Shown here: piece by piece, positions 10,560 through 63,935 of the stretch | Layout: each line of letters begins with the position of its first letter | How positions within the stretch are numbered: position 1 is the first letter of the stretch | NCBI GenBank assembly: GCA_039621445.1 | Contig: CP154954.1 | Span: 49,765,847-49,829,846, forward strand | DNA length: 64,000 nt | Reading direction: 5' to 3' | Source: Euglena gracilis | Lineage: Eukaryota | Program-made: the position numbers and the translations under genes | Notes under the pieces: model-generated | Seen by the model: the letters and a program-made list of their open reading frames with translations, nothing else | Databases searched by the model: none | Told to the model about the DNA's origin: nothing

Positions 10560-13500
10560 TCAGCAGGACACGAGGTCGAGGTCGTGGAAGATGTCGATGA
10601 GGACGCTGTCCAGTCCCAGCACCGACTGCAGGAAGTGCCGTGCCGCGGAGCACGGCGGCGCCCCCAGGCTTCCTTTTACCCGACCAAAGGGGGGTGGGGG
10701 AGGGGGGCCGGGTGCACTGTGGGGTGCCTGCCCATAGCAGGCAAACCCCCCTGGGGGGTGGGTCGGTTTGGGTCCCGGTGCCTGCTGACCCAGGCAATTT
10801 CCTGTTCTTGAAAATGGCCATTTTCGGATGTGCTACAGCCCTCACCCTCAAAACCCAACCCCCTGAAAATACCCCACCCCCCCTGCCTGCCCATAGCACC
10901 CATCCCCCGAGGTGGGGGGGAGGGGGGCGACCTTCCTTAAAAAGAAACCTGGGCACCTCGTCGGCCTCCGCCACGTCCTTCCAGGCCACCGCCTTGCCGG
11001 AGGGCTGGCCCCAGCGCTGCTCTCCCGCCAGCGGACTGGAAACAGCCACGTGGCTGAAGAGGGGAACGGTGGCTTGGTTTGAGGTGTGTTGGTGCAGTGA
11101 GGCGGCGCATGGATGGCGGCGGCACCACCACCACCACCAATGCCAACACAAAGAATACAAACAAGATGTCACTGGGGGGGGGGGGGGCTAGTGGGAACCC
11201 ACTTTTGGGGGGGTCAATTTTGGGCCCAAAAAGTTTTTAGGCGGTTCGCACCAAAATAGAAGAAAACGTCACATCTGGTGGGGTACCCACCCAGCCTGAC
11301 CCCCGGGCTCGGCTGGGACCCACCCACCCTACCGGGTCACGAAACTAAAAAAAATATCTGTCCATCCATCCATCCATTTATGAACAAAAAAAATGTGACC
11401 CAAAACCAAATCAGCCCCCATGGGGGTGCGCCTGCTGTCGGCAGGCACCCCATCCTGGCGGGGTAAAAATTGGCAAAAATGCAATGGAGGAAAATGGAAA
11501 AGAAATCCCGCCAAATATTTTTGGACTGTTTTGGCCGAGATTGCCTAATTTCCCGATGCTTTTTGGAAATATCCAAAACATTGCCCCCTGCCGTTCAAGC
11601 CCATTTCCCCTTGAAAATAGCATTTTTTTGGTTTATTGGTGTGCTGACCCCAGAGGGAGGATCAAATATTCCCAACCCCCCTGCCTGCCTGCACCCACGC
11701 CACAATGAATCAATGAAGCCCCCCTGCCAGGTTTTTACCGAGGGTTGTGCTCCTTCCTATCGCTTCCTGCGGTGCAGAGCTAACAGAGCCACGCTGTTCG
11801 CCAGCAGAGCTCTTCCTCTCCCTTCTCTTCCTCTGCCAACGTCTTCCGCATGCACTCCACAAAATTCTCAAATTCCGCTGTCAAATCCGGGGTGGCGGAA
11901 GCAGCGTCCACAAGGGAATCGGCGGTCGCTGGGGCCTCAACGGGCGGCTCAGGCAAGCACCTCCTTCCTCGGACCCACCCTGATTCCAATTGTCACAACC
12001 ATCTTAAAAAGCTGTCCATTTCTTCTGTCCATTTCCACACTTCAGAGCTTGCACAGAATCCACTACAACAGGTAGCATCCCTCAGAATTCCACATACAGG
12101 CAGGCAGGTGGTGGGTCGGACACAATGGAGGGGCACACCCTCACCAAAACAGATGTGCGACCAAAATGACTGATTTTTCAGCAGGTGCAAAGTTCTGGGC
12201 CGAAAAGCCCCCCCCCCCCATCGACCGAAAGCGTGACACCCTCCTTTTATGAAATCCTGATCCCCCTTCGAAACAGCAAAACTGTTGCAATTGAAAAAAA
12301 CCTTGCACACCTTTGGTGGTTTGGTGAAAAAATGCTGGGCCATAAATTTCAATGGCGGCCGCGGTACCTGCCTGGTTGTGGGGGTGTTTAGGAGAGCGAT
12401 GTTGTGTGCCGCTGGGGGGACGGCGATGGCCTGGCCTGCTGTCTGGGACACCACGATGGGGCCACAGCCGCCCAACGCGGTTCGCAGTTCGCTCCTAACA
12501 CACCCCGCCATGAGGAAATAGCTTGCATGGGAGTGATGACTGGCGCGGGTGTCAAGAATAGAATTTGCATTGCAGCTCTGGGCGGTCCTTAAGCAAGTCA
12601 AAAAAAAAAAAACCTCACCCATCCCAGCGCAGTCAAAATCCACAGGGAAAAAGCCCCCAAAAGGCCATCTTTTTGGCGAAAACGGGTCAACCACGGGGGG
12701 AACAGTGCTTTCTGGCTTGCATCTAGAGCGTGGCTCAAGGCAGTCTGTAAGTAGGAGTTCTTAACGGAGAAAGAAAATAAAATCCTGTCCTGTTGCACAG
12801 CCCTCTTGCACCGTCACACCAGCCCTGGGGGGAGAGCACAATAGAAAGCGCGGGCCCTGGTCGGGGTGCAGCTTGTTGCACTTGGCGCCGAACTTGCACT
12901 GGCCGGTCATGGCCCACACCTCGCAGATCTCCCGCCCGGCCTGCGCCTCCACCGCCTCCGACAGCTGCTGGTACGCCGTGAGGTCCGGGTGGACGAAGCG
13001 GCACTGGGAACACTGCGGCCGGCTGGAATTGATGTTATCCCCAGACCAAAAAGACAAGGCTTTATTTTTTAAGCCCCACCCAGCCCAGCCCGGAACCAAA
13101 CACCACTGGTCAGCCATGCTCTTGGGCCCAGCACTGCCCAGCATCGCCCAGCATCGCCTTTGAAGCCCTTGGGACTCTTCCTGTTCCTACACCCCCTGAA
13201 ACAAACCCTCCCCCAAATAATACCCCAGCCCTCAGGGTACGACTTCTGCGACCGGGTTAATACCCCCCCCCCGTTTCAGGCCAAAGGCCCGGATTTTAAC
13301 CTGAAAATGTTGGTAAAAATCACAATCTCTGACAACAAATTACGAAAAAAAATCATCTGACCTCCAAAAAATGGTAAACTTCATAAACACAAAAAATGAC
13401 CCAAAAGAGGGTCAAAAGGCGCTATTTTGGCTCCTACGGGACTCCGAAAAATTTGGGGTGTTATTCAGGCCGGGACTTCGGGCAAAAAAAATAACCCCGG

Positions 13501-27691: not shown

Positions 27692-27977
27692 CAGGCTTCT
27701 TTTTAAGTCAGCAGAACCCCCCCCCCCGGGGGGAGGGGGGGTCGGTGGGGGGGTACGGGCCGGACCCCCCCGGGGGGGGTGGGGGTCCCGCGCCGGAGGC
27801 GCTGGGTATACCTTTTCGGCGCGAAGCGCCGAAAATTTTTGGAAATCGCCTTTAGCGGGCCCGATTTTGGGGGGGGTCCCGGCCCCCCCCCCCCAGGGGG
27901 GGGGGTCCCGCGCCACCCTGGGTGGGTGGGGGGGGACCCCCCCCCTCCCCCCCCCGGGGGTCTTAAAAAGAAGCCTG
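27692..27977. mobile_element. hAT-like MITE family 3, free copy
   Basis: Perfect TIR CAGGCTTCTTTTTAAG and perfect 8-bp TSD CTTCCGAC. Confidence 0.9.
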
Positions 27978-29017
27978 CTTCCGACTCTGCCATTTCGCCG
28001 GGGTCCAAAAATCGGTCAAAATTGATTTTTCAAAAATATCTCGAGAAAGTGTACATTATTTCTGGAAATATCGGTCTGGTGAAATATACCCTCTATCACC
28101 CCCCATTCACCGCCTGGCGTGTTTCGGCGCGCTTTTGCGGCCCAGAACGGCCATTTTTGGGGTGTTTTTTTGGCAAAAAAATCGATTTTTCAAAAACATC
28201 TCTACAATGAAGCAAAATCAAAGAAAATGTCCGGAGAGCAAAAATGAAGCCCTTGGATTGCCCTTTCCAACCATGCTTTACCTTTCCCCTAACTCTTCGT
28301 GTAGCCCGAGTTTACGGCCATTTTTCGGCCAATTTTTGCCCACTTTTGGGGCCATTTTGGGCTGTTTTCGGGGTCCAAAATCGAACTGTCCAAAATATCT
28401 GGATAATGAAACAAAATCAAAGGAAATGTTCGGAGATCTAAATTGAAGCCCTTACAATGCCCAACCTAACAATATTTTGATTTCCCCGCAACTCCTCGCC
28501 TAGCCCGAAATATGGCCGAAAAATCGAAAAAAGAATTTTTGCCCGAAACTATGTTTTTTTGGCCTCCTGGACCCGGAAAAGCTTTTTTGAGCCAAAAAAC
28601 AAGCGTTTTTCGACCCCCCGGCCCCTGTTTTAGCCCCGAGGGGGGGGGGTCGGACCCGCCCCCCCCCCCCGTCGGGGCCACCTCAGGAACCCGCGGATTA
28701 TCACCATCATCCCATCTCCGTTCCCGGATTTTTCTTTCAGTCGCGAGCGACTGGATTTCTAGTTTCCCCATAGGTTTTGCCCAGGGGTAAGCTTCGCTCT
28801 TACCCATAAAGGGATAAGAGCTCAGTGACCCCTGCCGCCACCTACCTCACTTCTGCGCGGCTTCCCATACAACCCTGCCCGACAAGCCCGGTCATTGGAC
28901 AAGGGGGGGGAGGGGTCGGATCGGGAGTGCCTTGGAGTGGCTGCCCAGGCAAGCAACCCCCCCCCCCCCCGAGGTGGGGTCGGCACCCGACTAAAATACG
29001 GCCTGCTCAGGGTTCCC

Positions 29018-29510
29018 CAGGGCAGAACAGGAAGGCCTGGTGGGGGGGTTGACCCCCCACCTGGGAGGTGGGGGGGGTAGGTCGTCGACCCCCCCCACCC
29101 ACCACAGCATTTTCACAAATTTTGGGAAACGGGGATTTTGGCAGGGGAAATTTTTGATTTTTTTTTTGAAAAATGAACCCAAAATACATTCTTTAATTCT
29201 TTCGATGGACCACATTTTTTCACAAAAAAAATCTCAAAAAATTTCAGGTTTAAAAATTGGTAATTCGGAGGAGAGGGGTGAAAAAAAACGAAGGTCAAAA
29301 AACTGGACCAAATTTTGGCACAGTCAATTTTTACTGACATTTTTTCAAAGGCGCCAGGAAAATTTCTTGGGGTCCAAAAATTGGTGCTCCTGGAAATACG
29401 GGAAGAGGTGGTGTTGGAACCCCACCCCCCCCAACATGCAGGGGGTGGGGGGTGGTCGACCCCCCCCCTCCCACCAGCCTGGCTGTTCGGCGGATTCCCG
29501 TTCTGCCCTG
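29018..29510. mobile_element. hAT-like MITE family 2, free copy
   Basis: TIR CAGGGCAGAAC(A/G)GGAA and perfect 8-bp TSD GGGTTCCC. Internal sequence is similar to 39283-39844. A shorter relative lies at ~33858-33982. Confidence 0.88.
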
Positions 29511-30599
29511 GGGTTCCCTGGATTGCCTGGGAACTACCAGGCAGGCACCCCCCTCCCCCCAGGGGGGTCGGTCCTGCCTGGTCGCGGGCCAATAAGCGCC
29601 CAAAAATGGCCTTTTCTGGGCTTCCGGTGCCTTCGGCACCAGAAGTGCCTGGCCAAATGCCCAGGCACTTTTGCCATGTGCCCCCCCTCCGGGGGGGGGG
29701 GGGTTGATTTGGGTGTTTTGGAGTGCCTGCCCTGGTGGGCAGCCCGTCCTTCCCCGGGGTGGGGACGGCACCGCCTTAAAATTCAGCCTGCTTTCGCTGT
29801 GGCGCGGGCATAATTTTGCCATTTTTTCCCCTGAAGAAATATGGAACAATATCATTTTTTCAGCGGTCTTTCAGCAATTTTTCAAAGAAAAAAATGTTGG
29901 AAACATCCAATTGCTTTTGGGGCGTTTTTTAGGGGGGCCATGATAAAAAATTGTGACCCCCAGGCAGGGAGGGGGGAGGGGGGCAGTCTCAATGCGAAGC
30001 CTAACATATCGGCTGCTCTTGGCGGGGCTCGGGCTGGTCATTGAAAACACACCACAGTTGTGAGGCACCGAAGCTGGACTGGGTCGATCCAGTTTCAATT
30101 CGAGGAGCGGGTGTAGTTTGCTGAGCAACGCTGGGGAAAAAAGCGCCGGGGATGGCCCGCTTTCCCAGAGACCCTTTCAAACTTCCGCGCAAGATTTGAT
30201 TAGGTCACCAATTGTGGTCCCCCCGTGGAAGCTCTCAGGTAGCTGCAATCTTAAAACTCTCCCCACCATGCTTGTGCTTACCGACCGGGGGGGGGGGGTG
30301 CTATAGGGTGCCTGCCCCTAGCAGGCACACCCCCCCCGGGGGGGATAGGGGTCCGGGGGGGACCCAGAAAATTTTCATTGAAAATGGCCTTTTCTGGGCC
30401 CCTGGCGCCTTCGGCGCCGGGGTCAGAGGGGGGTGCCTGCTAGGGGCAGGCACCCCCCAAAACCCTACCCCCCTAGGGGGGGGGGGGTTGGATTGGGTGC
30501 TATGGGGTGCCTGCCCCTAGCACCCCCCCCGTGGGGTAGGCACCCGACTAAGCACAAGCCTGCTCCCCACAAAACTGATCTAAAAAACAAAACAAAACA

Positions 30600-32865: not shown

Positions 32866-34788
32866 TACGTCGGCAGGTTGCCACTAGCGAGGGTTAGCAT
32901 CTGGAGGGTCCAAACATCTTATGAGCCTCTGTGCCCACGGGATCTTGGGGTCACACCATTGCTTACTGACTTTCTGGCGAGAGGGGGATCACTCCCCAGT
33001 TTCAAAACACCACTCACCCACTTCACCCCTGGAGTGAGGCGTCGATCACTCTGGCCACTCGTGCCATCACGTGGGGTTTTCAGCCAGTACTGGCTCCAAT
33101 GGAGGGGGGATCTGAGCCAAAAACTTATCAGTCACTGTGAAAAAGCAGCCCGTCACCCCCCGGACACACATTGAGCAATGGTGTGCTTGGGACCCTCGAG
33201 ACCATCCCTTCGAGAGGATTAAAACCTTCGATGGGGCGGTTGGGTTAGAAAAGATTGCTGAAGCGTTGGCGGACACTGCCAACAAACACAACATTGGTTG
33301 GGGATTGCCCAGGTTCAGGGTGATGCAGTGCCCAATGACCACCAGCGCACAAGGAATTAAATGATTGACATGATGGTGACTGTGAAGACCAACCATACAT
33401 TTTCTATTTGGCACCTGTGCGTTTTGGCCAATTGAGAATATGATCCAAAGGCAGCTCTTTGCAACAACCAACAACTGCCACAGCCACAACTACGTACATG
33501 AGCGCCGCTGGGGAAAATGGAAAAACCTGCAAAAAGGCGGCATACATGGATGCATTTTCATACAACCTCAAAAAAAACCAGCCTCATTTTGGTCCTGACC
33601 TGCAAGCTGCGACCAGGGGGGTGGTCGTTAGACCCCCCCCTCACTTGCAACCTGCGACCGGGGGGTGGTCGTTAAAGTGGGGTGGTCGCACGACAAAGGG
33701 GGGAGCACTTACCAACAACTAATGATAACCAGTGATTGTGTCCAACCAACACCCCCCTCTGCTCTTATCCCTATGACCAATGACCACCATTTGACAAAAA
33801 GTGCAAAAGAGGGGGAAAATTGACCTTTGGGGGGGTCCCAGGAGAACCCCCCCCCTCCAGAGCAGAACCGGGAAGGCCTGGTGGGGGGAGGGTGGTCGAC
33901 CCGGGAAAGATTTTTGGGGGTCGAAAATTGTTGCTCCGGAAAGACGGGGGCTGGCCGAATGGCCGATTCCCGTTCTGCCCTGCCCCTGCCCCCCAGGTCC
34001 CCCCTGGCCTCCACCCATGTCGCAACCTCGACTTCTGTGTGGGGTCGGGGGGCTGAGCAACCCCCACCACAGCAGGCACGGGCAGCTGGTCAGCCCAACA
34101 ATATACAGCCTGGGCTGGGGGCAGTGCCCATGTCGCCTCTGCAATGCTTCCGCTGGGACGCGCCACTGTGTCACGGTGGGGCATGCGGACCCCGTGGAGC
34201 CCTGCGGCGTCTATATCTGGGCGGCACCGAAGGTCACCTCCGGGCAGCGGCTCACCCCTCCCCCAAGACGACGAAAAGGAACCGTCCTGGCTCAGGAGGA
34301 CTTGGCATCCCCGAGCCGACCACCGGTGTGGGCGGGACACAGTGCTGCGGTGGCACTGGCGTGCTGCGTTCCCACCGGGATGCAATGCAGTGGGAGGCAG
34401 CAACAGTGGACGGGTGGGGAGGGAGGGGAGGGGCGGCGGCCCCAGGTCACAACTGTGGGGGTGGCCGCAAACATGGGACGAATTTCGTCTGCCAAATTAC
34501 AGAAAATGAAAAAGAGTGCTGAGCCCCGGCAGGGCTGCAATCCAGGAGGCCGTATTCTGGAGCCCCTCTCTGACGAGAGTGGCTCAAATTCCTCAAATTT
34601 GCCATGGAGCCTGCTCGAGCAAAAGCTTCTTCTTAAAACCCCACCATCCGGGGTCCCCCCTCGACCAGGGTGGAACGGGACCCCCCGTGATTTTGGGCTG
34701 TTTGACGGCACTTGTTGAAAAATTTCCGGTGCAATGCGCCGGAAAAATTTAAGCCCCCCTCAGGGGGGTTCTTACAGTTAAAACGAAG

Positions 34789-37908: not shown

Positions 37909-40900
37909 TCAGCAGGCGACCAGGTTCAGGTCCCGGAAGATGTCGATCAGCGCGCTGTCCACCCCCAGCCCCAGGGAAGAACGGGAAGGCCTGGGGCAGG
38001 GGGGGGGGGAAATGCAACTTGGCCCTTCAAATTATGCAAGTCAAAAAAATGCAAAAAAATGCAAAAAAATGCAAAAAAAATGCAAAAAAATGCAACTTGC
38101 AAAGAAAACCCTGAGAAAACCCTGAGAAAAGGCTGGAATGTAACAGAGTTGCTGCCTATAATCCATAGGCATGTGACAATGCCGGTGTATACCTGTCAAT
38201 GATTCACAAAGAAGACCTCCTGGACATATATTGCAAAAACTGGCTCCTACACTAGACAAGTGTGGGGGGGTGTGGGGGGTGTGGGGGGGGTGTGGGGGGG
38301 TGTGGGGGGGTGTGGGGGGGGGGGGGGTGTGGGGTGAATGGGGGGGCGGGGGGGGGTGGGGGAGGGGGGGGGGGCGGGCGCAGCCCCCCCCCCCCCTCCC
38401 CCCCCCCGCCGCGGTGGCCGTAGGCCACCGGACCCCTCATCGGTGGCTGTGGGCCTGGATAATGTCTATCTGGGCTCCAATTTTTCACGGAAAAAAACAT
38501 ACATTTTGATGAAAAAAATTCCAAAATTCTCAGGTTTAAGTTGTTTTCAGGAGTGGTGATAAAACTGCAAAGTCAAAAAAACTGCCCCAAATTTTGGCAC
38601 ACTCAAATTTTATTGACATTTTTTCTCTTGGCAAATTTTTGGTATTTCAACCATTTTTTTGCTTCAAAAACCTCCGACATTCAAACCTTTGAGAAAATTG
38701 TGCAATTTGGACGGTGAGGAAAAAAATGTGGTCTTGGGCGGGTTTTGGAGGGACCTCCAATTTGCCAACATAGGTCCCAAAATGGGACCAAAATACACCC
38801 GGTGCCGAACCCACACGGGTCAAGTGTGGGGGGGGGGGGTTGTGGGGGTGTGTGTGGGTGTGGGGGGTGGGGGGTGTGGGTGTGGGTGTGGGGGGTGGGG
38901 GGGGGGGGGTGTGGGGGTAAATGTCTAGTGTAGGAGCCAGTTTTTGCAATACCTCCTCCTGGAAGACAACAGCAAGCACTGAGACCCCAAAAACCCCAGG
39001 CAACTGCAGAGGGACCAGAGACAAAACATGACATTGGCGACCAACTGCAAAAAAGTTTTCCAGGACAAAATATTTTATGCAAAAAATGCAAAAAAAATGC
39101 AAAAAATGCAAAGAAAATGCAAAAAAAATGCAAACATATGGCGACCAACTACAAAAAAATTTTCCGGGTCAAAATATTTTATGCAAAAAAATGCAAAAAA
39201 ATGCAAAAAAATGCAAATTTCGGAAAAACCCGATTATGCAAAAAAAATGCAAATTATGCAAGTTGCATTTTTTCCCCCCCTGCCTGGGGGGGGGGTCGAC
39301 CCCCCCACAGCATTTTTTTTTCCACCAATTTGGGAAAACGGGGATTTTGGCTGGGAATTTTTTTGAATTTTTTTGAAAATTGGACCCAAAATACATGATT
39401 TTTTTTGATGGAAAACCACACTTTGTTACAAAAAAATCTGAAAATTTTTAGGTTTAAAATTTGGTATTTTTTAGGAGGGGGGTGAAAAAAACGAAGGTCA
39501 AAAAATCGGACCAAAATTTGGCACAATCAAATTTTACTGACAGTTTTTCTCTTGGATTTTTTTTGGATTTTCAATGGCACTGTTCGCTTCAAAAACTCTC
39601 AAAATGAAAATTTTGAAAAACGTTGATATTTTGGAAGGTGTGGAAAAATGGGGTTCTTGGGGGTTTTGGGGGGACCTCCTTCACGGGTCCCAAAATGGGT
39701 CAAAAATGCACCCGGCACCAAATAAAAATCTTTTTTGATGTCCAAATTTTTGGTGCTCCTGGAAATACGGGAAGAGGTGTTGGGGGGGGGGTCGACCGCC
39801 CCACCCACCACCCTGGCTGTTTGGCTGATTCCCGTTCTGCCCTGCCCAGCACCGACTGCAGGAACCGCCGCGCCGCGGAGTACTGAGGCGCCGCCTCATC
39901 CTCCGCCAGCTCCTTCCCGGCCACCGCCTTGCCAGAGGGCTGGCCCCAGCGGAGCCCACCGACCTGACTCCAAACCCTGAAGCAAAACACCGTGGTGGGC
40001 TGTTACCTGTAAGAATCTAGGACCCTAACACATTTCTATCATGGGCGGTGCTGTGATCCTGACAAGTTGTTAGGCACATGAAGGAATGCAACTTGTTGGC
40101 GCCCGGGGGGAGGGGGTAGGTCAGCCACTGCCGGTAACCTGCAACAGTGTTTGGACATGACTGGCAAAACTGACAGGTTGGCCGGCAGTTCCCCAGAGGG
40201 GACCGCAGGAAAACATGGTTGCTAGCAGGCTTCGTTTGACTAACCCCGGCGGGGGGTGCCTTGAGCTGTGGGATTGTGCCCTGCCCATAGTACCCCCCCC
40301 CCCATGTCCAATGACCGGTAACCTCTGTCCTCTGACCGGGGGGGGGGGGGTGGTCGTTGGACATACGGTAATGACCAAAAAGGTGTCCTCTGACCGGGGG
40401 GGGTGGTCGTTGGACATGGGGTCAAAAGAAAGTTGGTGGGTACCCGGGTCCCTACCCACCCAAAAATGCCCAAATTTTCCCTTCCGGCGCTTTGCGCCGA
40501 AAATTTTGGGCAATTTTGACAAATTTTTGTCCAAAAAGTGTCAAAAATGGCATTTTGGCCAAATTTTTGGCCAATTTTTGGGCAAAATTTTTCGTCCCGG
40601 CGCTTCGTGCCGGGACGAAAAATTTGGTCAACCTCCGAAAAGGTGTCCTCTGACCGGGGGGGTGGTCATTGGACATAGGGGGGTCGTTGGACATAGGGGG
40701 GGGGGTAAGCACACTCCCCTGGGGCTGGGGGGTCGGTTTGGAACCCCGGTGCCTGCCGACCAAGCCAGTTTTCCCTTGAAAATGGGTGTTTTCCGCCCCC
40801 GGCCCCTTCGGTGCTGGGGTGTGTGCAGGAGCACTACCCACCTCAAAGCCGACCCCCCCCCCGGGGGCAGGGTTACGGTAGGAGGATGTTCCGTAGGAGA

Positions 40901-43900
40901 ATGCTCTAGAGCATCCTGTAGGGTCCGCTCGAGGTCGCTCGAGGATGCTCTAGAGCATCCTCGAGGTCGCTCGAGGATGCTCTAGAGCATCCTCGAGTGT
41001 CGCTCGAGGTCGCTCGAGGATGCTCGAAAACATCCTCGAGTGTCGCTCGAGGTCACTCGAGGATGCTCGAAAACATCCTCGAGTGTCGCTCGAGGTCGCT
41101 CGAGGATGCTCTAGAGCATCCTCCTGCGTACACACATGCACGTATAATGAGACTCAGAACAGATTTCGAACAGGGCACTTTGTTGGATTGGCATTGGCAG
41201 TGGGGGACCATGAATTGAGCAACCCTTGCAGGCACCACACAGCAGGCACCCCTCGAGCTGTAACTCAACTGTTCGAGGGCCCCAAAATAACAAAATCCCT
41301 TGTGTTTCCAAGTCGTTTCGGGGGCAAATCCCTTGTGTTTCCAAGTCGTTTCGGGGAGCAAATCCCTTCTGTTGCTCAACTGTTCGAGGGCCCCAAAATA
41401 ACAAAATCCCTTGTGTTTCCCAGTCGTTTCGGAGCAAATCCCTTCTGTTGCTCAACTGTTCGAGGGCCCCAAAATAACAAAATCCCTTGTGTTTTCAGTC
41501 GATTCGGGGTGCAAATCCCTTCTGTTGCTCAACTGTTCGAGGGCCCCAAAATAACAAAATCCCTTGTGTTTCCCAGTTGTTTCGGGGGGCAAATCCCTTG
41601 TGTTTCCAAGTCGTTTCGGGGAGCAAATCCCTTCTGTTGCTCAACTGTTCGAGGGCCCCAAAATAACAAAATCCCTTTGTGTTTCCCAGTCGTTTCGGGG
41701 GGCAAATCCCTTGTGTTTCCAAGTCGTTTCGGGGAGCAAATCACTTCTGTTGCTCAACTGTTCGAGGGCCCCAAAATAACAAAATCCCTTGTGTTTCCAG
41801 TCGATTCGGGGGGCAAATCCCTTCTGTTGCTCAACTGTTCGAGGGCCCCAAAATAACAAAATCCCTTGTGTTTCCCAGTCGTTTCGGGGGCAAATCCCTT
41901 GTGTTTCCAAGTCGTTTCGGGGAGCAAATCCCTTCTGTTGCTCAACTGTTCGAGGGCCACAAAATAACAAAATCCCTTGTGCTTCCAAGTTGTGTCGGGG
42001 GGCAAATCCCTTCTGTTGCTCAACTGTTCGAGGGCCCCAAAATAACAAATCCATCGTGTTTCCAAGTTGTTTTGGGGGACATACATGCATGCATATACGT
42101 AGGAGGATGCTCGAGATGTCGTTCGAGGTCGCTCGAGGTCGCTCGAGGATGCTCGAAAACATCCTCGAGCTCGCTCGAGGAGCTCTAGAGCATCCTCAAG
42201 TGTCGCTCGAGGTCGCTCGAGGATGCTCTAGAGCATCCTCGAGTGTCGCTCGAGGTCGCTCGAGGATGCTCTAGAGCATCCTCCAGCGACGCTCGAGGTC
42301 GTTCGAGGATGCTCGAAAACATCCTCGAGTGTCGCTCGAGGTCGCTCGAGGTCACTCGAGGATGCTTTTTAAGCCCCCCCCCTGGAGGGGGGGGCTTAAA
42401 AACGCTCGAGGATGCTCGAGATCGAGCGCTCGATCTCGAGCATCCTCCTACGGTAACCTCCCCCCCCCCCCGGGGTTGAAAATGCCTTCCCCCCCCCACA
42501 CACTCCTGGTTGATAGACCGGAGGGAAAATACTGCATCAATTTCTGCGCAATGAAATTGGAAAAGAAACACCATGACATCATTCGCTGTCACAGGGCGCC
42601 GCTGCCTGCCAGCAGAACTCTTCCTCATCCTTCTCCTCCTCCGCCAGCGTCTTGCGCATGCACTCCGCGAAGTTCTCAAACTCCGCCGTCAGGTCCGAGG
42701 GTCCAGCCACAGCCTCCGCAGGGGAGGCATCGGCCGCTGGGGTCTCGTCGCGCGCTGTGAGAGGCTGCACACAGGTGCCCACCAGGCAACAGTGGTCGTT
42801 CCAGTGCAGGACTGCAAACCAAACTTCCAAACAGGCTCCAAACGCATTTGACTCTGCGGCCCACCCTGCCCACCCTGCATACGCCATCGGAGAATCAGTC
42901 GCCCAGGATTGGCGCAAACGAGGAGATGCACTTCTCTCATCAAAACAGAAGCAACCATTTTGATGAGCAAATGCCGGGTGATCAAGCATAACCCATTGGA
43001 AATCCTGTGGAATCATGGTGGAAACACACAGGAAACAAGACAATCTCTGGGGGAGGACAGTTCCCCGGGGGGGATACACATCCATATAATTTAATGCTTC
43101 CATTCATCGAGCAGATTGAGCGCCCGCCTAGCCGCAGCAGTGTTGAGGAGGGCGACGTTGTGCGCCGCGGGGGGGATGGCGATGACCTGGCCCGCTGGGT
43201 GGGACACCACGATGGGGCCACGGCGGCCCTGGGGTCGCCTCCGACACATCATGACAATGGGAAATGGTATGCATGGGACTGATAACCGGACACAACAAGA
43301 AGAGGCATTTACATTGGAGCACCACCACCACAGCCATCACAGCCCAGGAAGCAAGAACAATGCAATGAGGGGTGGCCATGGGCGGGGTGCAGCTTGTTGC
43401 ACTTGGCGCCGAACTTGCATTGGCCGGTCATGGCCAGGCACCTATGGTCACTTCCCATTTTGGTGCTCTGGTCGGCCCTGGTCGGCCCTGGTCGGCCCTG
43501 GTCAGCCCTGGTCAGCCCTGGTCGGCCCTGGTCGGCAAATAGTCGGCCATAGGTGGGGGTATCCGTCACAGAAAAAAAGATTGTGAAAAATGACCCAAAA
43601 TTACCAAAATGGCAAATTTGCCAAATCAGTGACTGCGGTGGGCTGAAAATGGTTAAAAATGGCCAAAAGTGGGCAAAGGCCAAAGAAAAGCTGTTTTGGC
43701 CACTACTTTTGCAAATCCAGAAGTTGCACCTGGCGCAAAATGCTCAAAAATGGTCAAATTGGACCAAAAAGAGACCAAAAAAATGGGGAGAATAACAAAA
43801 AAAGGTCGAAAATGGCTTTAAATGGTCAAAAATGGCCCAAGAGCAGGACAAAATGGCCCAAAATTACAAGAAGTGCGCAAAAAATGGCCAAAAATGGTCA

Positions 43901-44813
43901 AAATAGGTCAAAATTGGTGAATTATGGTGACAAATGGGCCAAAAGGGGACAAAAGCGACCTAAAATGGCCAAAAGCGACCAAAAGCAGCCAAAAGTGACA
44001 GCCAGATGAGCCAGAAAAATCTCAAAATCTGGGATAAAAAATGAGCCTAATTCCTCATTCTCACTGAAAAATTGACATCAATTAGAAAAAAGTTGCGCGG
44101 TCGGCTGCGGTCGGCTGCGGTCAGCTGCGGTCGGCTGCGGTAACCCGCGGTCGATGCTGCCGGGCCAGCATCGCCCTGCATCGCCCAGCATCGCCCAGCA
44201 TCATCAGAGGTGCTTGGTCCAGAGGGAAAGCTGCTGAATTCCTTCATCCATTCCCCTTCCGTCGGCCAACCACATGCAAGTCGGCCCTGGTCGGCCCTGG
44301 TCGGCCCTGGTCGGCCATAGGTGCCTGGTCATGGCCCACACCTCGCAGATCTCCCGCCCGGCCTGCGCCTCCACCGCCTCCGACAGCTGTTGGTACGCTG
44401 TGAGGTCCGGGTGGACGAAGCGGCACTGGGAACACTGCGGCCGGCGTATCAAACGTTCCAGCCCTCCCCGCAAGAGGATGAAGCACCAATGTAATACCAA
44501 TACTCCAGGTCATTGCGTGCACACGCAGCACAGCAGGAACAGTGGCATTCAAATTCATTTCACATTTATGCCACAAGGCTTTAAGATCTGAATGGAGCAG
44601 AGGCACAAGGTATTTCTGAATGACCAGTTCTTCAGACTAATGCACTGCGGGAATTTCATACTTTGCCCACAACACCTCGCGGACGCCGGGCGCAGGGCGC
44701 TCCCTGGTGCACTTGCCCTTCAGGAAGTCGAGGCAGACACTGAGGCCGGCCTCTGCCTTGGGCTTGCGGCCCCTCCGGTGCACGGTGGTCGAGGCGTTGG
44801 TTGTGGGGGCCAT
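37909..44813 (-). CDS. Tandem CCCH zinc-finger protein, paralog C (214 aa, 7 exons, two transposon-derived introns)
   Basis: Exons 44699..44813, 44331..44427, 43384..43429, 43134..43213, 42608..42762, 39848..39941, 37909..37966 = 645 nt, open frame MAPTTNASTTVHRRGRK...LIDIFRDLNLVAC*. Exons 97+46 nt sum to the 143-nt exon 2 of the other paralogs. The acceptor at ~42762 is uncertain by a few nt. Confidence 0.82.
37997..39282. mobile_element. Nested CAG...CTG TIR element inside the family-2 MITE
   Basis: Ends CAGGGGGG..AAATGCAACTTG / CAAGTTGCATTT..CCCCCCCTG, flanked by CCTGGGG(G) repeats. ATGCAAAAAA subterminal repeats. Confidence 0.75.
38229..38951. mobile_element. Third-level nested inverted-repeat element
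   Basis: Perfect 30-bp inverted repeat TATTGCAAAAACTGGCTCCTACACTAGACA (38229-38258 / 38922-38951). A CCTCCTGGA 9-mer lies near both ends (38216-38224, 38955-38963). Confidence 0.65.
40293..40705. mobile_element. TA-flanked MITE (Tc1/mariner-pogo-like)
   Basis: TA|CCCCCCCCCCATGTCCAATGACC ... GGTCGTTGGACATAGGGGGGGGGG|TA. The same family occurs at 35715-36319 and at the window start (1-102). Confidence 0.75.
40868..42459. mobile_element. Foldback-like TIR element with CTCGAG/TCTAGA-rich arms
   Basis: Ends CAGGGTTACGGTAGGAGGATG / CATCCTCCTACGGTAACC. The arms (40900-41125, 42100-42445) are built of palindromic GCTCGAGGATGCTCTAGAGCATCCTCGAG units. A related end lies at 21900-22000. Confidence 0.65.
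41263..42075. repeat. Minisatellite, 9 units of ~76 or ~112 bp
   Basis: Nine occurrences of CAACTGTTCGAGGGCC, each followed by one or two copies of an AAATCCCTTGTGTTTCCAAGTCGTTTCGGGG subunit. Confidence 0.9.
43435..44327. mobile_element. hAT-like MITE family 1 inserted in exon 2 of paralog C (forms predicted intron 43430-44330)
   Basis: Perfect 13-bp TIR CAGGCACCTATGG...CCATAGGTGCCTG, perfect 8-bp TSD GTCATGGC (43427-43434 and 44328-44335), and (GGTCGGCCCT)n subterminal repeats. The site is empty in paralogs A, B and D. Confidence 0.93.
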
Positions 44814-47800
44814 TGGATTGCGGTGAAAGGCTGGGGAAAGAAGACTGTGCGGCACAAGGGGAGGGGCAAAAGAGCGACAACGTGCGTTGGGCGGCACTAG
44901 GGCCAAACTTGAAATGGGGGACAAATATCGAGCAGCGCTGATATTCTCAGCAAACAGAAGAAAAGACAGAAAAAATCAGCAGGTGGAAAGGATTGTGTGG
45001 ATATCATCCTTCAGTGATTGTGTGTGTGCCATGCGTGCGTTTCCTTTCAATCTTCGATTATTGAACAATTTCAAAGCCGATGGGAAAAATATAATCCCAT
45101 GCCAACTTCACCTCCCAATCCACCATGTTTGGCACTTTCATTCAAAATACCTGCTCTTGTCAATTGTCAAAATGGGTGGGGGAAGGTGGGTGGCAAATTG
45201 GCTGGAAATAGGACAGATTGCCGAGCGGGGGCTTGATAAACACACACAATCCGACTCTAATGTGGGGACTTAGCAAGCAAGCACTGCTGCAAAAAAAAAG
45301 CGTTTGCAGCGCGACAACACTGGAAGGCAATTCATTGGGGGAGTGGATGGATGGCTCAAGGAGCCCAGGGGCGTCTTGGCAACGCAGGCGGCCGCCTGGG
45401 GCCGCGGCACTGGACGTTGGAGGAGGGATGGGAGGGCCTGGGGTGGACTGCCATGCGGCTGCCCCATCCGGAGAGTTCACGCCATCGGTTCGGGAATTGA
45501 GGGTATCAATGGATGACGTGGAAAGACCAATTCGACGCTTTTTCTGCAAAAGCACTGTGATAAGAATTCGGAAGAAATGGGGGGACTCTGCTGTGACAAG
45601 TGGCAGCGGCTGTCAAAGTGCCGGGGCAGGAATATATACCTGGAATTGGGTTTGGACCCGTAACACCATACCTCCCCCCCCCAAGCCCAATGAACACTAA
45701 GGTGACAATCTAGATGGTCCGAACGGGGGGTGTTCATTGGGCATGGGGGGGGGGGGAGGTACCATTGTTTATCACCCCCAGGGATGATCACTTTCCACTT
45801 TCAAAAAACCAGTGTCAGTCACCTTTGGGGTCGGTCACTCTCACTCAGTTAGGGTGGCAATAGACAGAATTGCTTGCCAAAGTGTAAAGAAAAATGCGCA
45901 CGTTGAAACGACATGGGATGGGCCAGGACAGACAGGGATCCTTCAGGCTGCTCTGGCGTCTAAGGTGCAGAATGGAGCACCCTGGCGACGTTCCGGGACG
46001 GTTTTTGATGGCCAAAGGTCACCAGCAGTTCCTGCGTGCAACTGCTCCTACCTCGCATGATCACACCCTGCAGAGGGGTTTCGTGCGCACACATGTGTAG
46101 GTGTGCGCCATGGGTTGCATGTTCCACGCTGCATGTGTATGTGTTGACGTTGGTCCGTTTCCAGTGTTCTATTGTTGCAGAAGAAATTATAATCTTCGGA
46201 GTGTCTGCCTGATTTTGACCTTGGATGTTTGGATAATTTTATTTTTTTCTTACAAAAAGGGTGTACGCACACACACGCACACGGACATATGCAAGCATGT
46301 GCATCACAAACATATACACCTACCCTTTGTTTGGTTAGAGATGGGTTTGGTTGAAAAAAAAATCGGACCTTTCCTCTATTGCCTTAGAAAGAGCATGGAA
46401 AACAAGATTAAGCAGTCAAATCAGTCAATCTACCTCTAAAATGTGGCGGAAACCACATCAAGCAACTGCATGACAGAGCTTGGTCAAAGCGACCGAGGGG
46501 GGCTTTGAGGATATTGGGGGTAGGAGGCTTCAAGCAGGGTGGCCCATCCTTCCTTTGCCTCTCCGTGACCGCTCGACAGCTGGATGGAGGAGGGGAGGGA
46601 AGCCCCCCACACCAGTTTAATATTTGGACATCTGACGCTCCATCAGGCGGACTCCCAACCCATGGCAATGTTCAGGGATGTTCACGCAGCGCGTGCGAAC
46701 ACCTCACTCTGTCAATGGCATGGGATGACAAACGGACGGCAATGACGAATCAACTCCTTTTGTTCAGGACCAGGCCATTGCTGAAGGACCCCGGGGGGTC
46801 TAATGGAAAAAATGGACTGGTTAGACCACACCCTCCCCCCCACGGTGGGGTCGGGGGTTCCCCCAACTGGAAAGAAATTATTCCTCAAGCACTGCGCGCC
46901 GAGGTGGAAATGAGGTTTTTAATGCATTTTTGGCTGATTTACTCAAAAAAAATCCAAAGCTGGCCGAAAATGGGCATTTTTTTGGCCAGTTTTGGCGGTC
47001 CAAAAAAAATTCGGTGCTTCGCACTGGTCACTGGAAAAAAATTACAGGGGGTCTGCTAGGATTTCCGCTGGCCAAATTTGGACTAGCGGCAGTCCAGCCC
47101 CCTCACCCCCCCCCCCCCGGGTGCTGCGAACCCTTATGCAAAGGACTGTTCAGGATCTTTTTGATTTTGGGGTGACATTGGCCAAAGACAACGGGGGATT
47201 CCGAAAAAAAAAACATAGCACTCACTCCCCTGGGGGGTCAGACACCACTCAAGCAAAATTGAAAAGATCAAATAACCCTCCTACAAAAAATATCAGGGGT
47301 TGAAAATATGTTGGAATATCCAAAGAAAATTAAACTATTCCAGAAATATGCTGTGGACAAAGGAGTGAGTGTCAATGACATGAGTTGCAAAATTTGGCAA
47401 AACACGCAGTTTTTTTTTGCCAGAATATAGCAAAAAAACACACCCCCATTTGAGGAATGAAACCCTCCATTGTACATTTATGTGGACTGAAGGAGAAAAA
47501 GCATTGCAGAAAATCCGCAGAAATTTGCAGAAAACTATGATACGAACTCACCCCGTTTGCATAATTGTGGTCACGAGACCAAACAATCGCCATTTTATCC
47601 CAACATTGGAACATGAGCCGAAAAAATAAATAAAAAAGCCTGTAAAAAATCTTCATTGGACAGGTGAGCAAAAACAAGGGTATGAGACAGGTCCCTATGG
47701 GACATGTTAGCAGTTTCAGAGGGCAGAGAAGACAAATTCCCGTAGGGGGGTATGCCGGTTCCATTTCATTAATAAATGCAAATGGGGCGACCATGACAAG

Positions 47801-48327
47801 AAAGGGTCAATTCTTTTAAAGCAACATGCCACCAACCGAGCGAAAAGATGAGCCTTGTGAGTGTGAGACACCGAGCCGAAAGCCAAGGTTTTGCGAGCCG
47901 GAACGCCAGGAGGGAGAAATTGAGGGGGAAAAAAGCAACTTTGAGACTGGTGGCGTGCAAAATAATATCCACAAAAAAATCATCAGAAAAACGGCGCATG
48001 AGAAAAGCGAAACAGGATTTTTATGAGGTCGAAGTCAAACGACGGGAAAAGAGGTGGAAGGGTCAGAATGGAGAAACGAGATAAAGCACATGCCATTGTC
48101 ATCCTCCAAAAAGTTTGTCGAGAACGGCAAGCTGGCAAGCACAAACTGTCGCACCCTCCCACAATCGGGGCACCACCCAGACGACACCAAGTTGCCCTTG
48201 CCATACGGCAGCCCACGCATGGGCTGCGCTCGGGAGCCGCAGGGCGGCGAGGGGGCAGAGAGGGAACACTTACGCAGCGGCGGCCATGCGCGGTGCCTCC
48301 GGACGCGTGGGCCGGCGCACGGGCTCT

Positions 48328-51300
48328 TCAGCAGCCGACGAGGTTCAGGTCGCGGATGATGTCCAGCAGCGCGCTGTCGACGCCGAGCACCGACTGCAGG
48401 AACCGCCGCGCCGCGGAGTACTGAGGCACTGCCTCCTCCTCTCCTCCGCCAACTCCTTCCCGGCCAGCGCCTTGCCGGAGGGCTGGTGCCAGCGCGGCCC
48501 CGCTCCGTACACCCATGGCCAAATAGGCGGAAGGAGTGGGGCGGTCTCTACCAGGCTGTTTTTTTTTAACCAACCCCGGGGGGGATGGGGGGTCCGGAGT
48601 GCCCTTGATTCAGGGGGGGGGGAATTGATATCGGAGGCCTTCGGAAAAATTGCGGAAAAATTGCGGAAATTGCGGAAAAATTGCGGAAAAATTGATATCG
48701 GGAATATACACATTTCTGCTTGGGGGGACTTAGAAAATTTTCAATTGTGAGGTTCAGAACACCGCAACACCCACGTCGATGCACGCGAGCACAAATCAAC
48801 ACGCTTGATGTTCTTTGCACAGGTGGGACGCACCCAATCCTGTGACCAGTGGTGCACATGTGAGAAAAATTGGTAAACTGGGGGGGGGGGAATTGATATC
48901 GGAGGCCTTCGGAAAAATTGCGGAAAAATTGCGGAAATTGCGGAAAAATTGCGGAAAAATTGATATCGGGAATATACACATTTCTGCTTGGGGGGACTTA
49001 GAAAATTTTCAATTGTGAGGTTCAGAACACCGCAACACCCACGTCGATGCACGCGAGCACAAATCAACACGCTTGATGTTCTTTGCACAGGTGGGACGCA
49101 CCCAATCCTGTGACCAGTGGTGCACCTGTGAGAAAAAGTGGTAAACTGGGGGGGGAACAACAAAACACAATAGCACACCTGTTGATCCATTTGAAGAATG
49201 GCTTGAACTCATTGCATCTTCCATCTTCGGTGGTGGGGAAAAAATTCTTCAAAAAAATGGTGAAAAAATTGCGGAAAAATTGCGGAAATTGCGGAAAAAT
49301 TGCGGAAAATTGCGGAAATTGCGGAAAAATTGCGGATATCAATTTCCTCCCCCCCCCTGCTTGAATGCCGGCCCAGGCAGGCACTACCCTTCCCCCTGGG
49401 GGGGTCGGATTTCGGCCTGTGCCCAGGAACTTTCCTCAGAAAATAGGCCATTTTTGAGCCTTCCGGCGCCGTAGTGCCCGCCAGGCACATCTGGCTGAGT
49501 CCTACCTCCCCCCCGGGGGGGTCGGATTTGGAGTGCCTTGGAGTTCCTGCCCAGGCAGGCACCCCCCCCTTAGTTGCACTAAGGCTTCTTGTCTGTTTAT
49601 GGCCGGCGCGTTTATGGCAGACACCCCCCCCCCCCCGGGTGGGGTAGGCACCCGACTAAAATGCCGCCTGGTCCCCACAGGAGCTGGGTTGAAAGAGAAC
49701 CCCCAACGATTCACGGAGGGGGGGGTGCCGAGGAGAGGTTACAAGCATTTTGGCTGGGAGCAGCCAACCAAGAAGTTGACTCTTTGGTTTAAAGACAACA
49801 AAAAATGACACCTCTCCATGGTTGGACGTCGTTCGGTAGCTGCCAGCCACGGCGCAAACCAACCAATGAAAAAAATGCAAAACTGTCGTTATATTGGCCT
49901 CCACAGGGTTCTGAGCGTACCAAAGAGCCGCCCAACATTGCCGTTTGCTCTAAACACACTAATTTCAGTAATTTCTCTGGTTGGAACCATGGCAGGCTGC
50001 AGCCAACCTCGGAGGCCAAACTACAATCAAAGGAAAAACTCGGGCCTCATGCTTGCAGGGGGAGGCTGCGTTTCCAACCAAAATTAATGAATGAATGGTT
50101 GTGCTGGGTATTTCTCACCACCCATGAGGCAATTTTCGGTCATTCCTGGGCTATTTAAGCTGTGTTAAGTCACTTTGGGCCTTTGGGGGTTTTGGCCTCT
50201 GCCGCCCTTCATAACAATCACGAAAAATGCACTGGTCGGCTGGATGACCTCAAATGGCGGGGCAGACCGACATTACAATCCCCCTTTGAAAGCAGTCCCC
50301 TCTCCTCTGATGACCATCCAGCACTTTTAACGTCTAGATTCTCCAGCAACTCAGAAATGAGTAAATTACCCGCCTGAAAGATGACGCACAAATACCCCAA
50401 CGAACTAAAACAAATGCATCTGGACGACATTTGGCAAAATGATGCTGGGGAGGGGATTTTGTCAGGAAATCCCCTCCCCAAAGGGTAGCGCTGAACGCCA
50501 ATGGTAGTCCTCCTCCTCTTCCTCCGCCGGCGCCGACTTGTTCCGCATGCACTCCGCGAACCTCTCCAACCCCGCCGTCACGTCCGGAGCCTTGGGACCA
50601 ACGGCCGCCGCGGCGCCGGGGTTGCCGCTGGGGGACTCCCCCCGGCGGGCCTCAACCGCCGCGGGGGCCACGACGTGCTGCACGGACCGCACGGCTGGGG
50701 TTGGCACGGGGGCCGGGGCGAGGCCTGGGGCGGAGATGGCGACGGCCTGCCGCGTCGGGCTGGCCACCACGATGGGGCCAGGGGCCGTGCCGCCTGGGCG
50801 GCGAGGGGAGCCCAACCCGGTCGGCCATGAGGGTCGGAGGCGGTCGGGGAGGCAGAACAGGCATTTGCTTAAGGACCCGGGGGGGTGGGGGTACTGGCTA
50901 CCCAATCGGCTAGACCTGGGAAAAAAAGACCTAGCTAGACCCCCCCCTCCCCCCCCGGGGGGGGGGGGTCCGGGGGTCCCCCGTACCGGAAAAAAAATTT
51001 TCCCCCGGCGCTGCACGCCGGAGGAAAAACGAGGTTTTTAATAGGTTTTTGGCTGATTTTGTTCAAAAAATTCCCAAAAATGGCCAAAAACGGGCATTTT
51101 TGGCCATTTTTGGGGTCCCCCAAAAAATTTTCGGCGCTTCGCGCCGGTCACTGGGAAAAAAATTTTCCACTTGCTACCCCCCCCCCCTAGTCGTATGACT
51201 GGGTTCCTGCAACCTGTGACCGGGGGGGGTGGTCATAACACCCCCATAACCTGCAACCTGTGACCGGGGGGGTGGTCAAAACGAGGGGGCGGTTGTAGGT

Positions 51301-52753: not shown

Positions 52754-53537
52754 GGCAAGTTAACAGAAAAGAATGAAAGAGACTGCGGTGGAAGGAACCC
52801 AGCGTCGCCTTCTCGCCAAGAACACCAAAAAGAAGCCCGCAGTTTCCCGTTGGGGAAGGTTTCAAGATCCCAAGGGTTCTAGGGTTTTGCATCTGCGGGG
52901 TTATTCAGACATCTGGAATCAAACATCTGAGGCCAATATCCAACCTCTCGTACCAAGTCCCGCTGGCTCATTGGCAAGCATGTTCAAGAAGCCCGGGGCC
53001 AAATTTGGGGGAGGGGGGAATGCCAAATCCAACGGCCAGAGGGGGGGTTAGTGAGCCATCGGAGGAGGGGGGTGGGGGGACCCCCTTCCAAAACTAGGGG
53101 GGGGGGGATGGGGGATGGGGGACCCCCCCTCCTACGTCCCAATTTCCGGTCGCCGAACCTCTCGCCGTTGAGTGCAAAATTTCGGTCTTTTTGGAGGGGG
53201 CAAAAAAACTAATTTTTCTGAAATTTCTCAAAAATGGTGGGGAATCCAAGGAAATGTCCGGAGAGCTAAATCGAAGCCCTTAAAATGCCCCATTTAACAA
53301 CATTTTGATTTCCTCGCAACTATCTGCCTAGCTCGACCATTTTTCTGTGAATTTTGGTCTTTTTGCCAAAATTTCATATTGAGCCTCAAGAGGGTCCTAA
53401 AATGTGCACCCGGCGAGAAACACCGGAAGATTATTTTTGCCCCAGCAGAGGAGGAGGGGGACGTTGGGGACCCCCCTTCGAAACTAGTGGGGTGGGGGTG
53501 GGGGGACACCCCCGACCTCCCCTGGACAACCCTGATC

Positions 53538-53885
53538 ATACATACATACATACATACATATACATACATACATATACATACATACATACATACATACATA
53601 CATACATACATACATACATACATACATACATACATACATACATACATACATACATACATACATACATACATACATGCATGCATGCATGCATGCATGCATG
53701 CATGCATACATACACACATACACATAAACACACATACGTGCATACATATGCATACATACATGCATGCATACATATATACATCCATACATGCATACATCCA
53801 TAGATACACACATGCATGTATGCTGCATCCACCCACCCATCCATCCATCCATCCATTCATCCATCCATCCATCCATCCACCCATA
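53538..53885. repeat. Compound (CATA)n/(CATG)n/(CATC)n microsatellite
   Basis: Read directly from the sequence. Confidence 0.95.
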
Positions 53886-56502: not shown

Positions 56503-56902
<400 letters not shown>

Positions 56903-62899: not shown

Positions 62900-62945
62900 G
62901 GCAAGTTAACAGAAAGGAATGACAGAGACTGCGGTGGAAGGAACC
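62900..62945 (-). promoter_or_regulatory. Candidate spliced-leader trans-splice acceptor upstream of paralog A
   Basis: The minus strand reads TTCCTTCCACCGCAG|TCTCTGTCATTCCTTTCTGTTAACTTGCC-ATG and is conserved in B (52754-52800). C has a pyrimidine tract plus CAG at 44830-44875. The function is inferred from euglenozoan biology. Confidence 0.4.
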
Positions 62946-63837: not shown

Positions 63838-63935
63838 ACATACACAGATACACGCATACATACATTCATGCATGCATACATACGTACATACACATACATA
63901 CATACATACATACACGCATGTATACGTACATACAT
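63838..63935. repeat. (CATA)n microsatellite
   Basis: Read directly from the sequence. Confidence 0.9.

Follow-up and report, generated by a model that had tools for sequence, protein, structure and literature searches.

We analysed 64,000 nucleotides of the Euglena gracilis genome (GenBank assembly GCA_039621445.1, contig CP154954.1, positions 49,765,847 to 49,829,846 of the forward strand; referred to here as the window), which contain four tandem CCCH zinc-finger paralogs. We found that the last coding exon of one of them, paralog C, is interrupted by a 1.9-kb interval. Our data indicate, with a probability that we put at about 80%, that this interval is an E. gracilis nonconventional (NC) intron, born from the insertion of a DNA transposon of a family referred to here as family 2 and enlarged by two later elements. 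The interval has the anatomy of a MITE (a miniature transposable element with inverted repeats), complies with the splicing code of NC introns, has empty sites as its counterparts in the other three paralogs, and is bridged by a matching spliced protein sequence.

A transposon splits the terminal exon of paralog C

Self-comparison of the window resolved the four paralogs, all of which lie on the minus strand and whose protein family carries a zf-CCCH domain (Pfam, E = 3.3e-07):

about 10560-13023, minus strand: coding exons of paralog D, with a probable first exon near 16400-16720
37909-44813, minus strand: paralog C
about 47671-52811, minus strand: paralog A
about 59202-62957, minus strand: paralog B

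The terminal exon is unbroken in A (48328-48500) and in B (59811-59978). The two halves of the C exon align to it separately, 37909-37972 to A 48328-48391 and B 59811-59874, and 39844-39957 to A 48382-48500 and B 59865-59978; at the break, the two A segments that match the C halves have 10 nt in common. In paralog D, too, the exon runs through the C insertion site without a break, and it carries the same GTGCTGGG target. Since the interruption is missing from A, B, and D, it represents a gain in C. What was gained is bounded by terminal inverted repeats (TIRs) and by a target site duplication (TSD), as follows:

37909..37966, minus strand: coding part of exon 5b (G-VDSALIDIFRDLNLVAC and the stop codon TGA at 37909-37911)
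37964..37971: TSD copy CCCAGCCC, gene sense GGGCTGGG; its first five gene-sense bases are intronic and its last three exonic
37967..39847, minus strand: 1881-nt NC intron of C, which breaks the Leu codon CT|G in phase 2; the only code-fitting register
37972..39844: outer family-2 MITE, 1873 bp including nested elements and about 580 bp without them, recognized by TIR, TSD, and homology to a free copy
37972..37987, plus strand: left TIR arm CAGGGAAGAACGGGAA, in gene sense the 3' arm ...UUCCCGUUCUUCCCUG
39829..39844, minus strand: right TIR arm CAGGGCAGAACGGGAA, in gene sense the 5' arm
39845..39852: TSD copy CCCAGCAC, gene sense GTGCTGGG, the same as the uninterrupted site in paralog D
39848..39941, minus strand: exon 5a (...PSGKAVAGKELAEDEAAPQYSAARRFLQSVL), starting at 39941 in the NC register and at 39939 in a GC-AG register
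29018..29510: free family-2 copy, 493 bp, with TSD GGGTTCCC (8/8) at 29010-29017 and 29511-29518

The TIRs are 16 nt long and match at 15 of 16 positions (CAGGGAAGAACGGGAA against the reverse complement of CAGGGCAGAACGGGAA), and the flanking 8-mers match at 7 of 8. With the nested block removed, the C element aligns end to end with the free copy (340 identical of 468 aligned columns). We found 10 occurrences of the TIR 16-mer in the window when up to three mismatches were allowed, compared to 0.96 expected, and 0 of 100 shuffles reached 10. The original prediction, made from the same sequence, had described a family-2 element that splits SVL|GVD in C, a free copy at 29018-29510 with a perfect TSD, a span of 37964-39852, and a single TSD mismatch in the intronic part. 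Each of these held: the span equals duplication, element, and duplication, and the sole mismatch (GTGCTGGG versus GGGCTGGG) falls at position 2 of the 3' copy, within the excised five-nucleotide spacer (N5).

A scan of the window for CAG...CTG pairs, in which at least 12 of 14 terminal matches were required, gave 34 pairs whose 8-bp flanks matched in a bimodal manner: 8/8 in six pairs, 7/8 in the outer C element, and no more than 6 in the remaining 27. At the sequence level, this bimodality points to real transposon insertions that make 8-bp duplications. A further element, 125 bp long (33858-33982), carries both family-2 TIRs (CAGAGCAGAACCGGGA and CAGGGCAGAACGGGAA) between C-rich flanks without a clear duplication and is probably a deletion derivative of the family-2 element.

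In its 8-bp TSD, its TIR, its copies at 29018-29510 and 33858-33982, and its empty sites in A, B, and D, the C element resembles hAT-type MITEs (e.g., Ac/Ds-like), which share with it short CAGGG... TIRs, sub-kilobase size, lack of coding capacity, diverged copies, and mutual nesting. Family 2 is presumably hAT-like, a label that we take from duplication length and terminal bases as general knowledge. P elements also make 8-bp duplications. We found no transposase to accompany the element: a Pfam scan of 15 long open reading frames (ORFs) of the window, to which the search was confined, detected neither a transposase domain nor any other relevant domain.

The interval fits the nonconventional splicing code in one register

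Nomura et al. (2025, PMC12501133; here and below, citations by PMC number refer to parts of the papers) established the NC code in E. gracilis with the help of knock-in mutagenesis. It requires CAG (CDG) at a distance of exactly 3 nt from the 5' border and further needs CTG (CH'G) followed by 5-6 nt, a purine that starts the next exon, and complementarity beside the motifs, and synthetic 50-bp inserts with these features alone get spliced (PMC12501133). NC introns comprise 71.8% of the introns of E. agilis, and conventional introns also occur in Euglena (PMC12501133).

We enumerated every donor/acceptor pair that reproduces the protein of EG_transcript_27420, the transcript matching paralog C. 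Eight registers are compatible with this protein. None has GT/GC-AG borders, and a single one has the form N3-CAG...CTG-N5|purine, namely GGG-CAG...CTG-GGGCT|G. In this register (39848|39847), GGG-CAG occupies intron positions 1-6 with CDG exactly 3 nt inside the border, the 3' motif CTG-GGGCT supplies an N5 spacer, and the downstream exon opens with a purine, G at 37966. It is also the register T|GGGCAG...CTGGGGCT|G that had been proposed originally. The composite element thus makes up the intron together with 3 nt of the 5' duplication copy before it and 5 nt of the 3' copy after it; the CAG and CTG of the intron are the terminal bases of the element itself, and its spacers are drawn from the two TSD copies. 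A dinoflagellate-type introner with GT/GC-AG borders was considered and dropped, both because the organism is Euglena and because there is no canonical register among the eight.

The same enumeration bears on whether the conventional spliceosome could remove the element through cryptic GT/GC-AG sites. This idea has some plausibility, since a GC-AG reading of the C intron 4/5a is possible and Euglena does have conventional introns (PMC12501133). Yet GT/GC-AG borders occur in 0 of 8 protein-reproducing registers, the nearest GT...AG pair (CG|GTGCT ... GGACAG|CG) deletes 17 nt and shifts the frame, and intron 4/5a in A, B, and D is not GT/GC-AG and fits the NC code. We consider conventional splicing of the element very improbable.

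Complementarity beside the motifs is supplied by the TIR arms, which can pair over 5 + 10 bp with one mismatch. The duplex formed by the first and last 30 nt of the intron has an energy of -32.0 kcal/mol; among 256 interior windows none is as low, and among 300 shuffles two are.

A transcript-derived protein crosses the junction

We found that the conserved CCCH exon at 51845-52018 (minus strand) matches eight EukProt proteins with 76-100% identity. Five of these are EG_transcript_* entries (82-100% identity; four at 98-100%) and three are GGOE01* entries; EG_transcript is the naming scheme of the E. gracilis Z1 transcriptome (PMC6366073). Exons of the window show 96-100% identity to EG_transcript proteins, so that the DNA is almost certainly nuclear DNA of E. 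gracilis. The cognate of paralog C was sought with its most paralog-specific segment:

42606..42761, minus strand: exon 4 of C, the segment specific to this paralog by which its cognate transcript was identified

Query 42606-42764 retrieved EG_transcript_27420 (P0009, 144 aa) with 100% identity, the next best match being 68%. All 144 of 144 residues of P0009 equal C exons 2b, 3, 4, 5a, and 5b, including the junction SVLG|VDS. Across the element P0009 reads ...RRFLQSVLG|VDSALIDIFRDLNLVAC (in a longer stretch, ...AVAGKELAEDEAAPQYSAARRFLQSVLG|VDSALIDIFRDLNLVAC), with C-specific residues on both sides of the junction. At the protein level, the intron is thus absent from the mature mRNA. The original prediction would have failed had C transcripts never joined to 37909-37966; P0009, as a protein sequence, does join to this segment.

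Splicing weighed against gene decay

Several observations weigh against an intron born from a transposon. On the transcript side, the evidence is a protein predicted from short reads assembled de novo and so stands at the protein level. Moreover, the 36 residues that surround the junction (AAPQYSAARRFLQSVLG|VDSALIDIFRDLNLVAC) recur unchanged in P0002, an expressed paralog from outside the window, which makes a chimeric contig conceivable; it is likewise conceivable that P0009 derives from an insertion-free allele or a duplicate. P0009 starts at an ATG inside the duplication of a second C insertion, located upstream at 43435-44327, and exon 1 of C was found in none of the proteins of at least 73 aa, which leaves a full-length C product undocumented. 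The minimum free energy (MFE) fold of the whole 1921-nt precursor leaves the two TIRs unpaired, its 5' arm pairing with a sub-terminal complement about 95-110 nt in. Given that the TIR helix is not recovered by folding the whole precursor, this fold is not used as support, and we rely instead on end-duplex energies with their controls. Of the four C introns verified by the transcript, two (2b/3 and 3/4) obey neither the GT/GC-AG rule nor the code, which indicates that the code is not the whole story in paralog C. Finally, the code has been proven on short cassettes, e.g., 50-bp synthetic introns (PMC12501133), and kilobase-sized NC introns have been reported descriptively only (PMC11282704).

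With regard to the start of P0009, the frame upstream of it is open through the 43435-44327 element, and an earlier Met lies at least 9 codons upstream at MGSDHRCLAMTG.... Retention of the 43435-44327 insertion would give a longer ORF and is thus unlikely. It is possible that the start of P0009 reflects a 5'-truncated assembly or an internal 5' end.

Some of these points would also be expected if the insertion were plainly disruptive and C were a dying gene. Transcripts would then read through into the element (...SVLGRAERESAKQ...) and stop after about 45 foreign codons, or be degraded, and the spliced protein would come from an insertion-free allele, an identical duplicate, or a Trinity chimera with a P0002-type 3' end. 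The protein-level nature of the evidence and the 36 junction residues common to P0002, the missing full-length C protein, and the unpaired TIRs of the whole-precursor MFE fold all favor such decay, which does occur in the array, as C carries two exon insertions and its neighbor A a 5-nt frameshift. Against this stands the finding that the element has every tested feature of a code sufficient for synthetic inserts (PMC12501133). Both split exons are in frame: code-spliced exon 2 of C has 0 amino-acid differences compared to A, B, and D, and the ratio of nonsynonymous to synonymous substitution rates (dN/dS) of exon 5 is below 1 (about 0.25 versus B and 0.45 versus D). The frame has survived a period long enough for a mutation in the duplication and for two nested insertions to occur. 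In addition, the 144/144 identity of P0009 to C extends to the segments most divergent among the paralogs, and the same architecture in paralog D is matched by a transcript. We therefore regard gene decay, with the spliced protein derived from elsewhere, as unlikely and favor removal of the element from RNA as an NC intron.

Two nested elements enlarged the intron

The family-2 element of C contains a second element, which in turn contains a third:

37997..39282: level-2 nested element of 1286 bp, bounded by CAGGGGG...CCCCCTG, with AAATGCAACTTG as sub-terminal inverted repeats; it breaks the alignment to the free copy
38225..38955: level-3 nested element, 731 bp, with a perfect 30-nt TIR and an 8/8 direct repeat CTCCTGGA

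The level-2 insertion is flanked in the family-2 alignment by a 7-nt CCTGGGG repeat, the eighth base being ambiguous. The perfect 30-nt inverted repeat of level 3 lies at 38229-38258 and 38922-38951, and the direct repeat CTCCTGGA (8/8), read off the sequence, lies at 38217-38224 and 38956-38963. Since this repeat lies 4 nt beyond each arm, the limits of level 3 are more likely 38225-38955 than 38229-38951. Of the nesting described in the original prediction, the element at 37997-39282 with its own CAG...CTG ends is confirmed, whereas the innermost limits, given there as 38229-38951, shift accordingly. Minus their passengers, the elements measure about 580 (outer), 547 (level 2), and 731 bp (level 3). 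The predicted growth by nesting from roughly 0.5 kb to 1.9 kb agrees with these sizes (about 580 bp without passengers and 1873 bp with them), and the predicted tolerance of nesting agrees with a three-layer composite whose spliced protein, P0009, matches. No other copies of the level-2 and level-3 elements were detected in the window, where searches returned only their own arms. Their mobility is therefore deduced from TIRs and flanking repeats and, for level 2, additionally from the way in which it breaks the family-2 alignment.

In gene sense, the level-2 element itself fits the NC code (AGG-CAG...CTG-CCCCA|G). Its end duplex of -43.3 kcal/mol is the strongest of those measured, with no equally low value in 172 interior windows or 300 shuffles. 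The termini of level 3, CATA...CCTC, do not comply with the code. These data bear on whether removal is stepwise in the manner of a twintron, with level 2 (39285..37992 in gene sense, 1294 nt) leaving first and a family-2 intron of ~587 nt afterward. Both the code fit and the exceptional end duplex of level 2 would suit such an order, and with level 2 excised, the distance between the outer arms would fall to about 0.55 kb, compared to 1.85 kb before. On the other hand, the data are at the protein level and include no intermediate, and the final mRNA is the same for one-step and stepwise removal. The off-code termini of the innermost element make a three-step removal unlikely. Furthermore, nested NC introns are described in none of the passages retrieved by term searches of PMC6221363, PMC3935182, and PMC4770533, in which twintrons figure only in the plastid references of the latter two. 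Stepwise removal is a tentative option, and we think it doubtful.

The TIRs of the innermost element are flanked by G-rich (GTGTGGGGGG)n arrays. Its interior (38512-38802) is 73-76% similar to family-2 interiors (39430-39715 and 29217-29346) although its TIRs are unrelated, which suggests, on sequence similarity, that MITE families in the window share internal modules.

Other transposon-derived and older introns in the window

Two further insertions specific to one paralog have the same architecture as the C intron:

43435..44327: the other C-specific insertion, 893 bp, with TIR CAGGCACCTATGG and TSD GTCATGGC (8/8); free relative at 20559-21641
10665..10951: MITE intron of 287 bp, specific to D and located in its terminal exon, with flanks matching 6/8; code register GCC-CAG...CTG-GGGGC|G

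The insertion at 43435-44327 splits the CCCH exon of C between ...EVWA and MTGQCKF, fits the NC code as GAC-CAG...CTG-GCCAT|G, and has an end duplex of -33.3 kcal/mol. Its TIRs differ from those of the outer element, in line with the earlier suggestion that the two C introns come from different MITE families. The D intron sits elsewhere in the terminal exon than the C intron and has an end duplex of -26.7 kcal/mol. The TIR CAGGCTTCyTTTTA is common to the D intron and to free copies at 27692-27977 and 63089-63373 (285-286 bp, perfect 8-bp duplications). Both 43435-44327 and 10665-10951 are CAGG...CCTG elements. The protein P0004, a near-cognate of D, reads ...DEVP|PCSAARH... as code-splicing of D predicts. 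It is not an exact D transcript, since it departs from D at residues 86-90 and 127-130 and agrees with exon 1 only in part, and we treat it as supporting evidence only.

Intron 4/5a is common to all four paralogs (C 42606/39941, A 50498/48482, B 61327/59960, and D 11801/11004) and is an old intron. It keeps the pattern N3-CAG...CTG-N5|A in all four, with a compensatory change beside the motif that can be read directly: C-G in A and B, G-C in C, and U·G in D. Only in C is it also readable as GC-AG (a 'hybrid' intron); in A, B, and D it is not GT/GC-AG. The off-rule C introns at 43214-43383 (170 nt) and 42762-43132 (371 nt) have unexceptional duplexes, with 29/300 and 84/300 shuffles as low, respectively.

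A 637-bp MITE at 50858-51494 (TIR CAGGCATTTGCT, TSD AGGCAGAA, 8/8) is present in A and missing from B, in which the empty site is 61678-61685. It inserted into the existing intron 2/3 of A, about 80 nt upstream of exon 3.

Other observations on the paralog array

The terminal exon of paralog A contains 5 extra bases in an acidic stretch (about 48436-48445; GAGGAGAGGAGGAGG versus GAGGAGGAGG in B), so that the frame is shifted between PSGKALAGKELAEE and ...VPQYSAARRF. Paralog A may be a pseudogene or may use another junction. The last intron of A contains a 275-bp tandem duplication that is 99% identical.

The window is rich in short repeats, its longest ORF is only 307 aa, and an Rfam scan of the whole window gave 0 matches. 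Tandem arrays or satellites lie within or between the paralogs at 41258-42081, at 40892-41123 together with 42098-42366, at 56473-56904, at 53536-53895 together with 2843-3010 and 63837-63936, and at 48613-49155.

Discussion

We propose the following mechanism for the C intron. A non-autonomous DNA transposon of family 2 (~0.55 kb, CAGGG... termini, hAT-like) would have entered the last coding exon of C, and two further elements would later have inserted into it, bringing it to 1.9 kb. Paralog C would be transcribed through the entire composite, and the 16-nt TIR-derived arms would pair (CAGGG with CCCUG, one C·U mismatch, then AGAACGGGAA with UUCCCGUUCU). This pairing would join the donor point, 3 nt upstream of CAG, with the acceptor point, 5 nt downstream of CTG and before the purine G. 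The NC-splicing machinery would then ligate ...TCGGTGCT to GGGGGTGGAC..., and excision would remove the element and one duplication equivalent, so that the pre-insertion frame is back exactly. Because the 3-nt and 5-nt spacers sum to the 8-bp duplication, excision would exactly undo the insertion, and because only the ends matter, nested insertions in the interior would be tolerated. Published NC introns leave the transcript later than the conventional introns do, and they are set free as circular RNA (PMC11282704). By analogy with the literature, pairing of the ends in vivo, the chemistry of excision, circular release, and removal after conventional introns may apply to the C intron as well.

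The C intron is a genuine, well-supported new case of a known intron class. Like the euglenid NC introns (Milanowski et al. 2014/2016; PMC12501133), it lacks GT/GC-AG, has CAG at +4..+6 and CTG at -8..-6, a purine acceptor, complementary sequences by the motifs, and a 'slidable' border from direct repeats, and occupies a position specific to one copy. Unlike the NC introns in the papers cited here, it is assignable to a repeat family that has a free copy with a perfect TSD 8.5 kb away, and it is a three-layer composite of 1.9 kb. NC introns, their code, and the idea of a MITE-like origin have been published (PMC3935182, PMC4770533, PMC6221363, PMC11170887, PMC11282704, PMC12501133). In the parts of these papers cited here, the origin is a hypothesis or 'unclear'. 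PMC12501133 states the MITE origin as a hypothesis and notes that 'origins ... remain unclear', and as of 2014 no transposable element had been identified in euglenids. Full-text searches, which took in PMC12501133 and PMC12455990 but no supplements, no papers available by subscription only, and not the paper on the chromosome-level genome of E. gracilis, turned up neither a text that ties the 3-nt and 5-nt spacers to a duplication of 8 bp nor one that shows an NC intron with free family copies.

Introners (Micromonas, Aureococcus, dinoflagellates, and fungi) and maize Ds introns are similar to the C intron in that a DNA transposon inserted into an exon is removed from RNA, that its termini and TSD supply the splice signals, and that it belongs to a multicopy family. 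They are spliceosomal, with GT/GC-AG or co-opted canonical sites, whereas the C intron has no canonical register, would use the structure-dependent pathway of euglenids, and would bring back exactly the sequence from before the insertion. An intron-like element within an intron is likewise present in twintrons (Euglena plastid group II/III) and in fungal stwintrons. In those systems the inner intron has to leave first, as its removal reconstitutes the outer one; in the C intron the outer ends are intact, inner removal would be optional and is putative, and the nesting arose by insertion of transposon into transposon.

Our data lean toward a broader reading, namely that the NC code is the RNA image of the insertion scar of one transposon superfamily: CAG and CTG would be the TIR termini, the helix the TIR, and 3 + 5 the 8-bp TSD. 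In the window, three NC introns obey this geometry; each is lineage-specific, each stems from a different MITE family, and each has free relatives there. If this is true, a CAG...CTG MITE that lands in a transcribed exon with an 8-bp duplication would, in either orientation, be born precisely excisable when the sixth duplicated base is a purine. This would explain the prevalence of NC introns in Euglena and many of their 'slidable' borders, and layered insertions would create optional nested introns.

From 2014 on, the origin of euglenid NC introns has been described as a mystery, and in 2025 it was still termed unclear; the MITE hypothesis has so far leaned on the inverted repeats in which the introns end and on the direct repeats that are often present at their junctions. 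The locus described here unites an intron present in one paralog, membership in a repeat family with a nearby free copy that has a perfect TSD, and a matching spliced transcript. The sum 3 + 5 = 8 would give an arithmetic reason for both fixed spacers of the NC code, and the question of origin becomes directly testable, both genome-wide and by the existing knock-in assay. The C locus further suggests that NC introns can grow by additional transposon insertion with their function kept, and it provides direct, locus-level evidence for the transposon origin of NC introns and for tolerated nesting.

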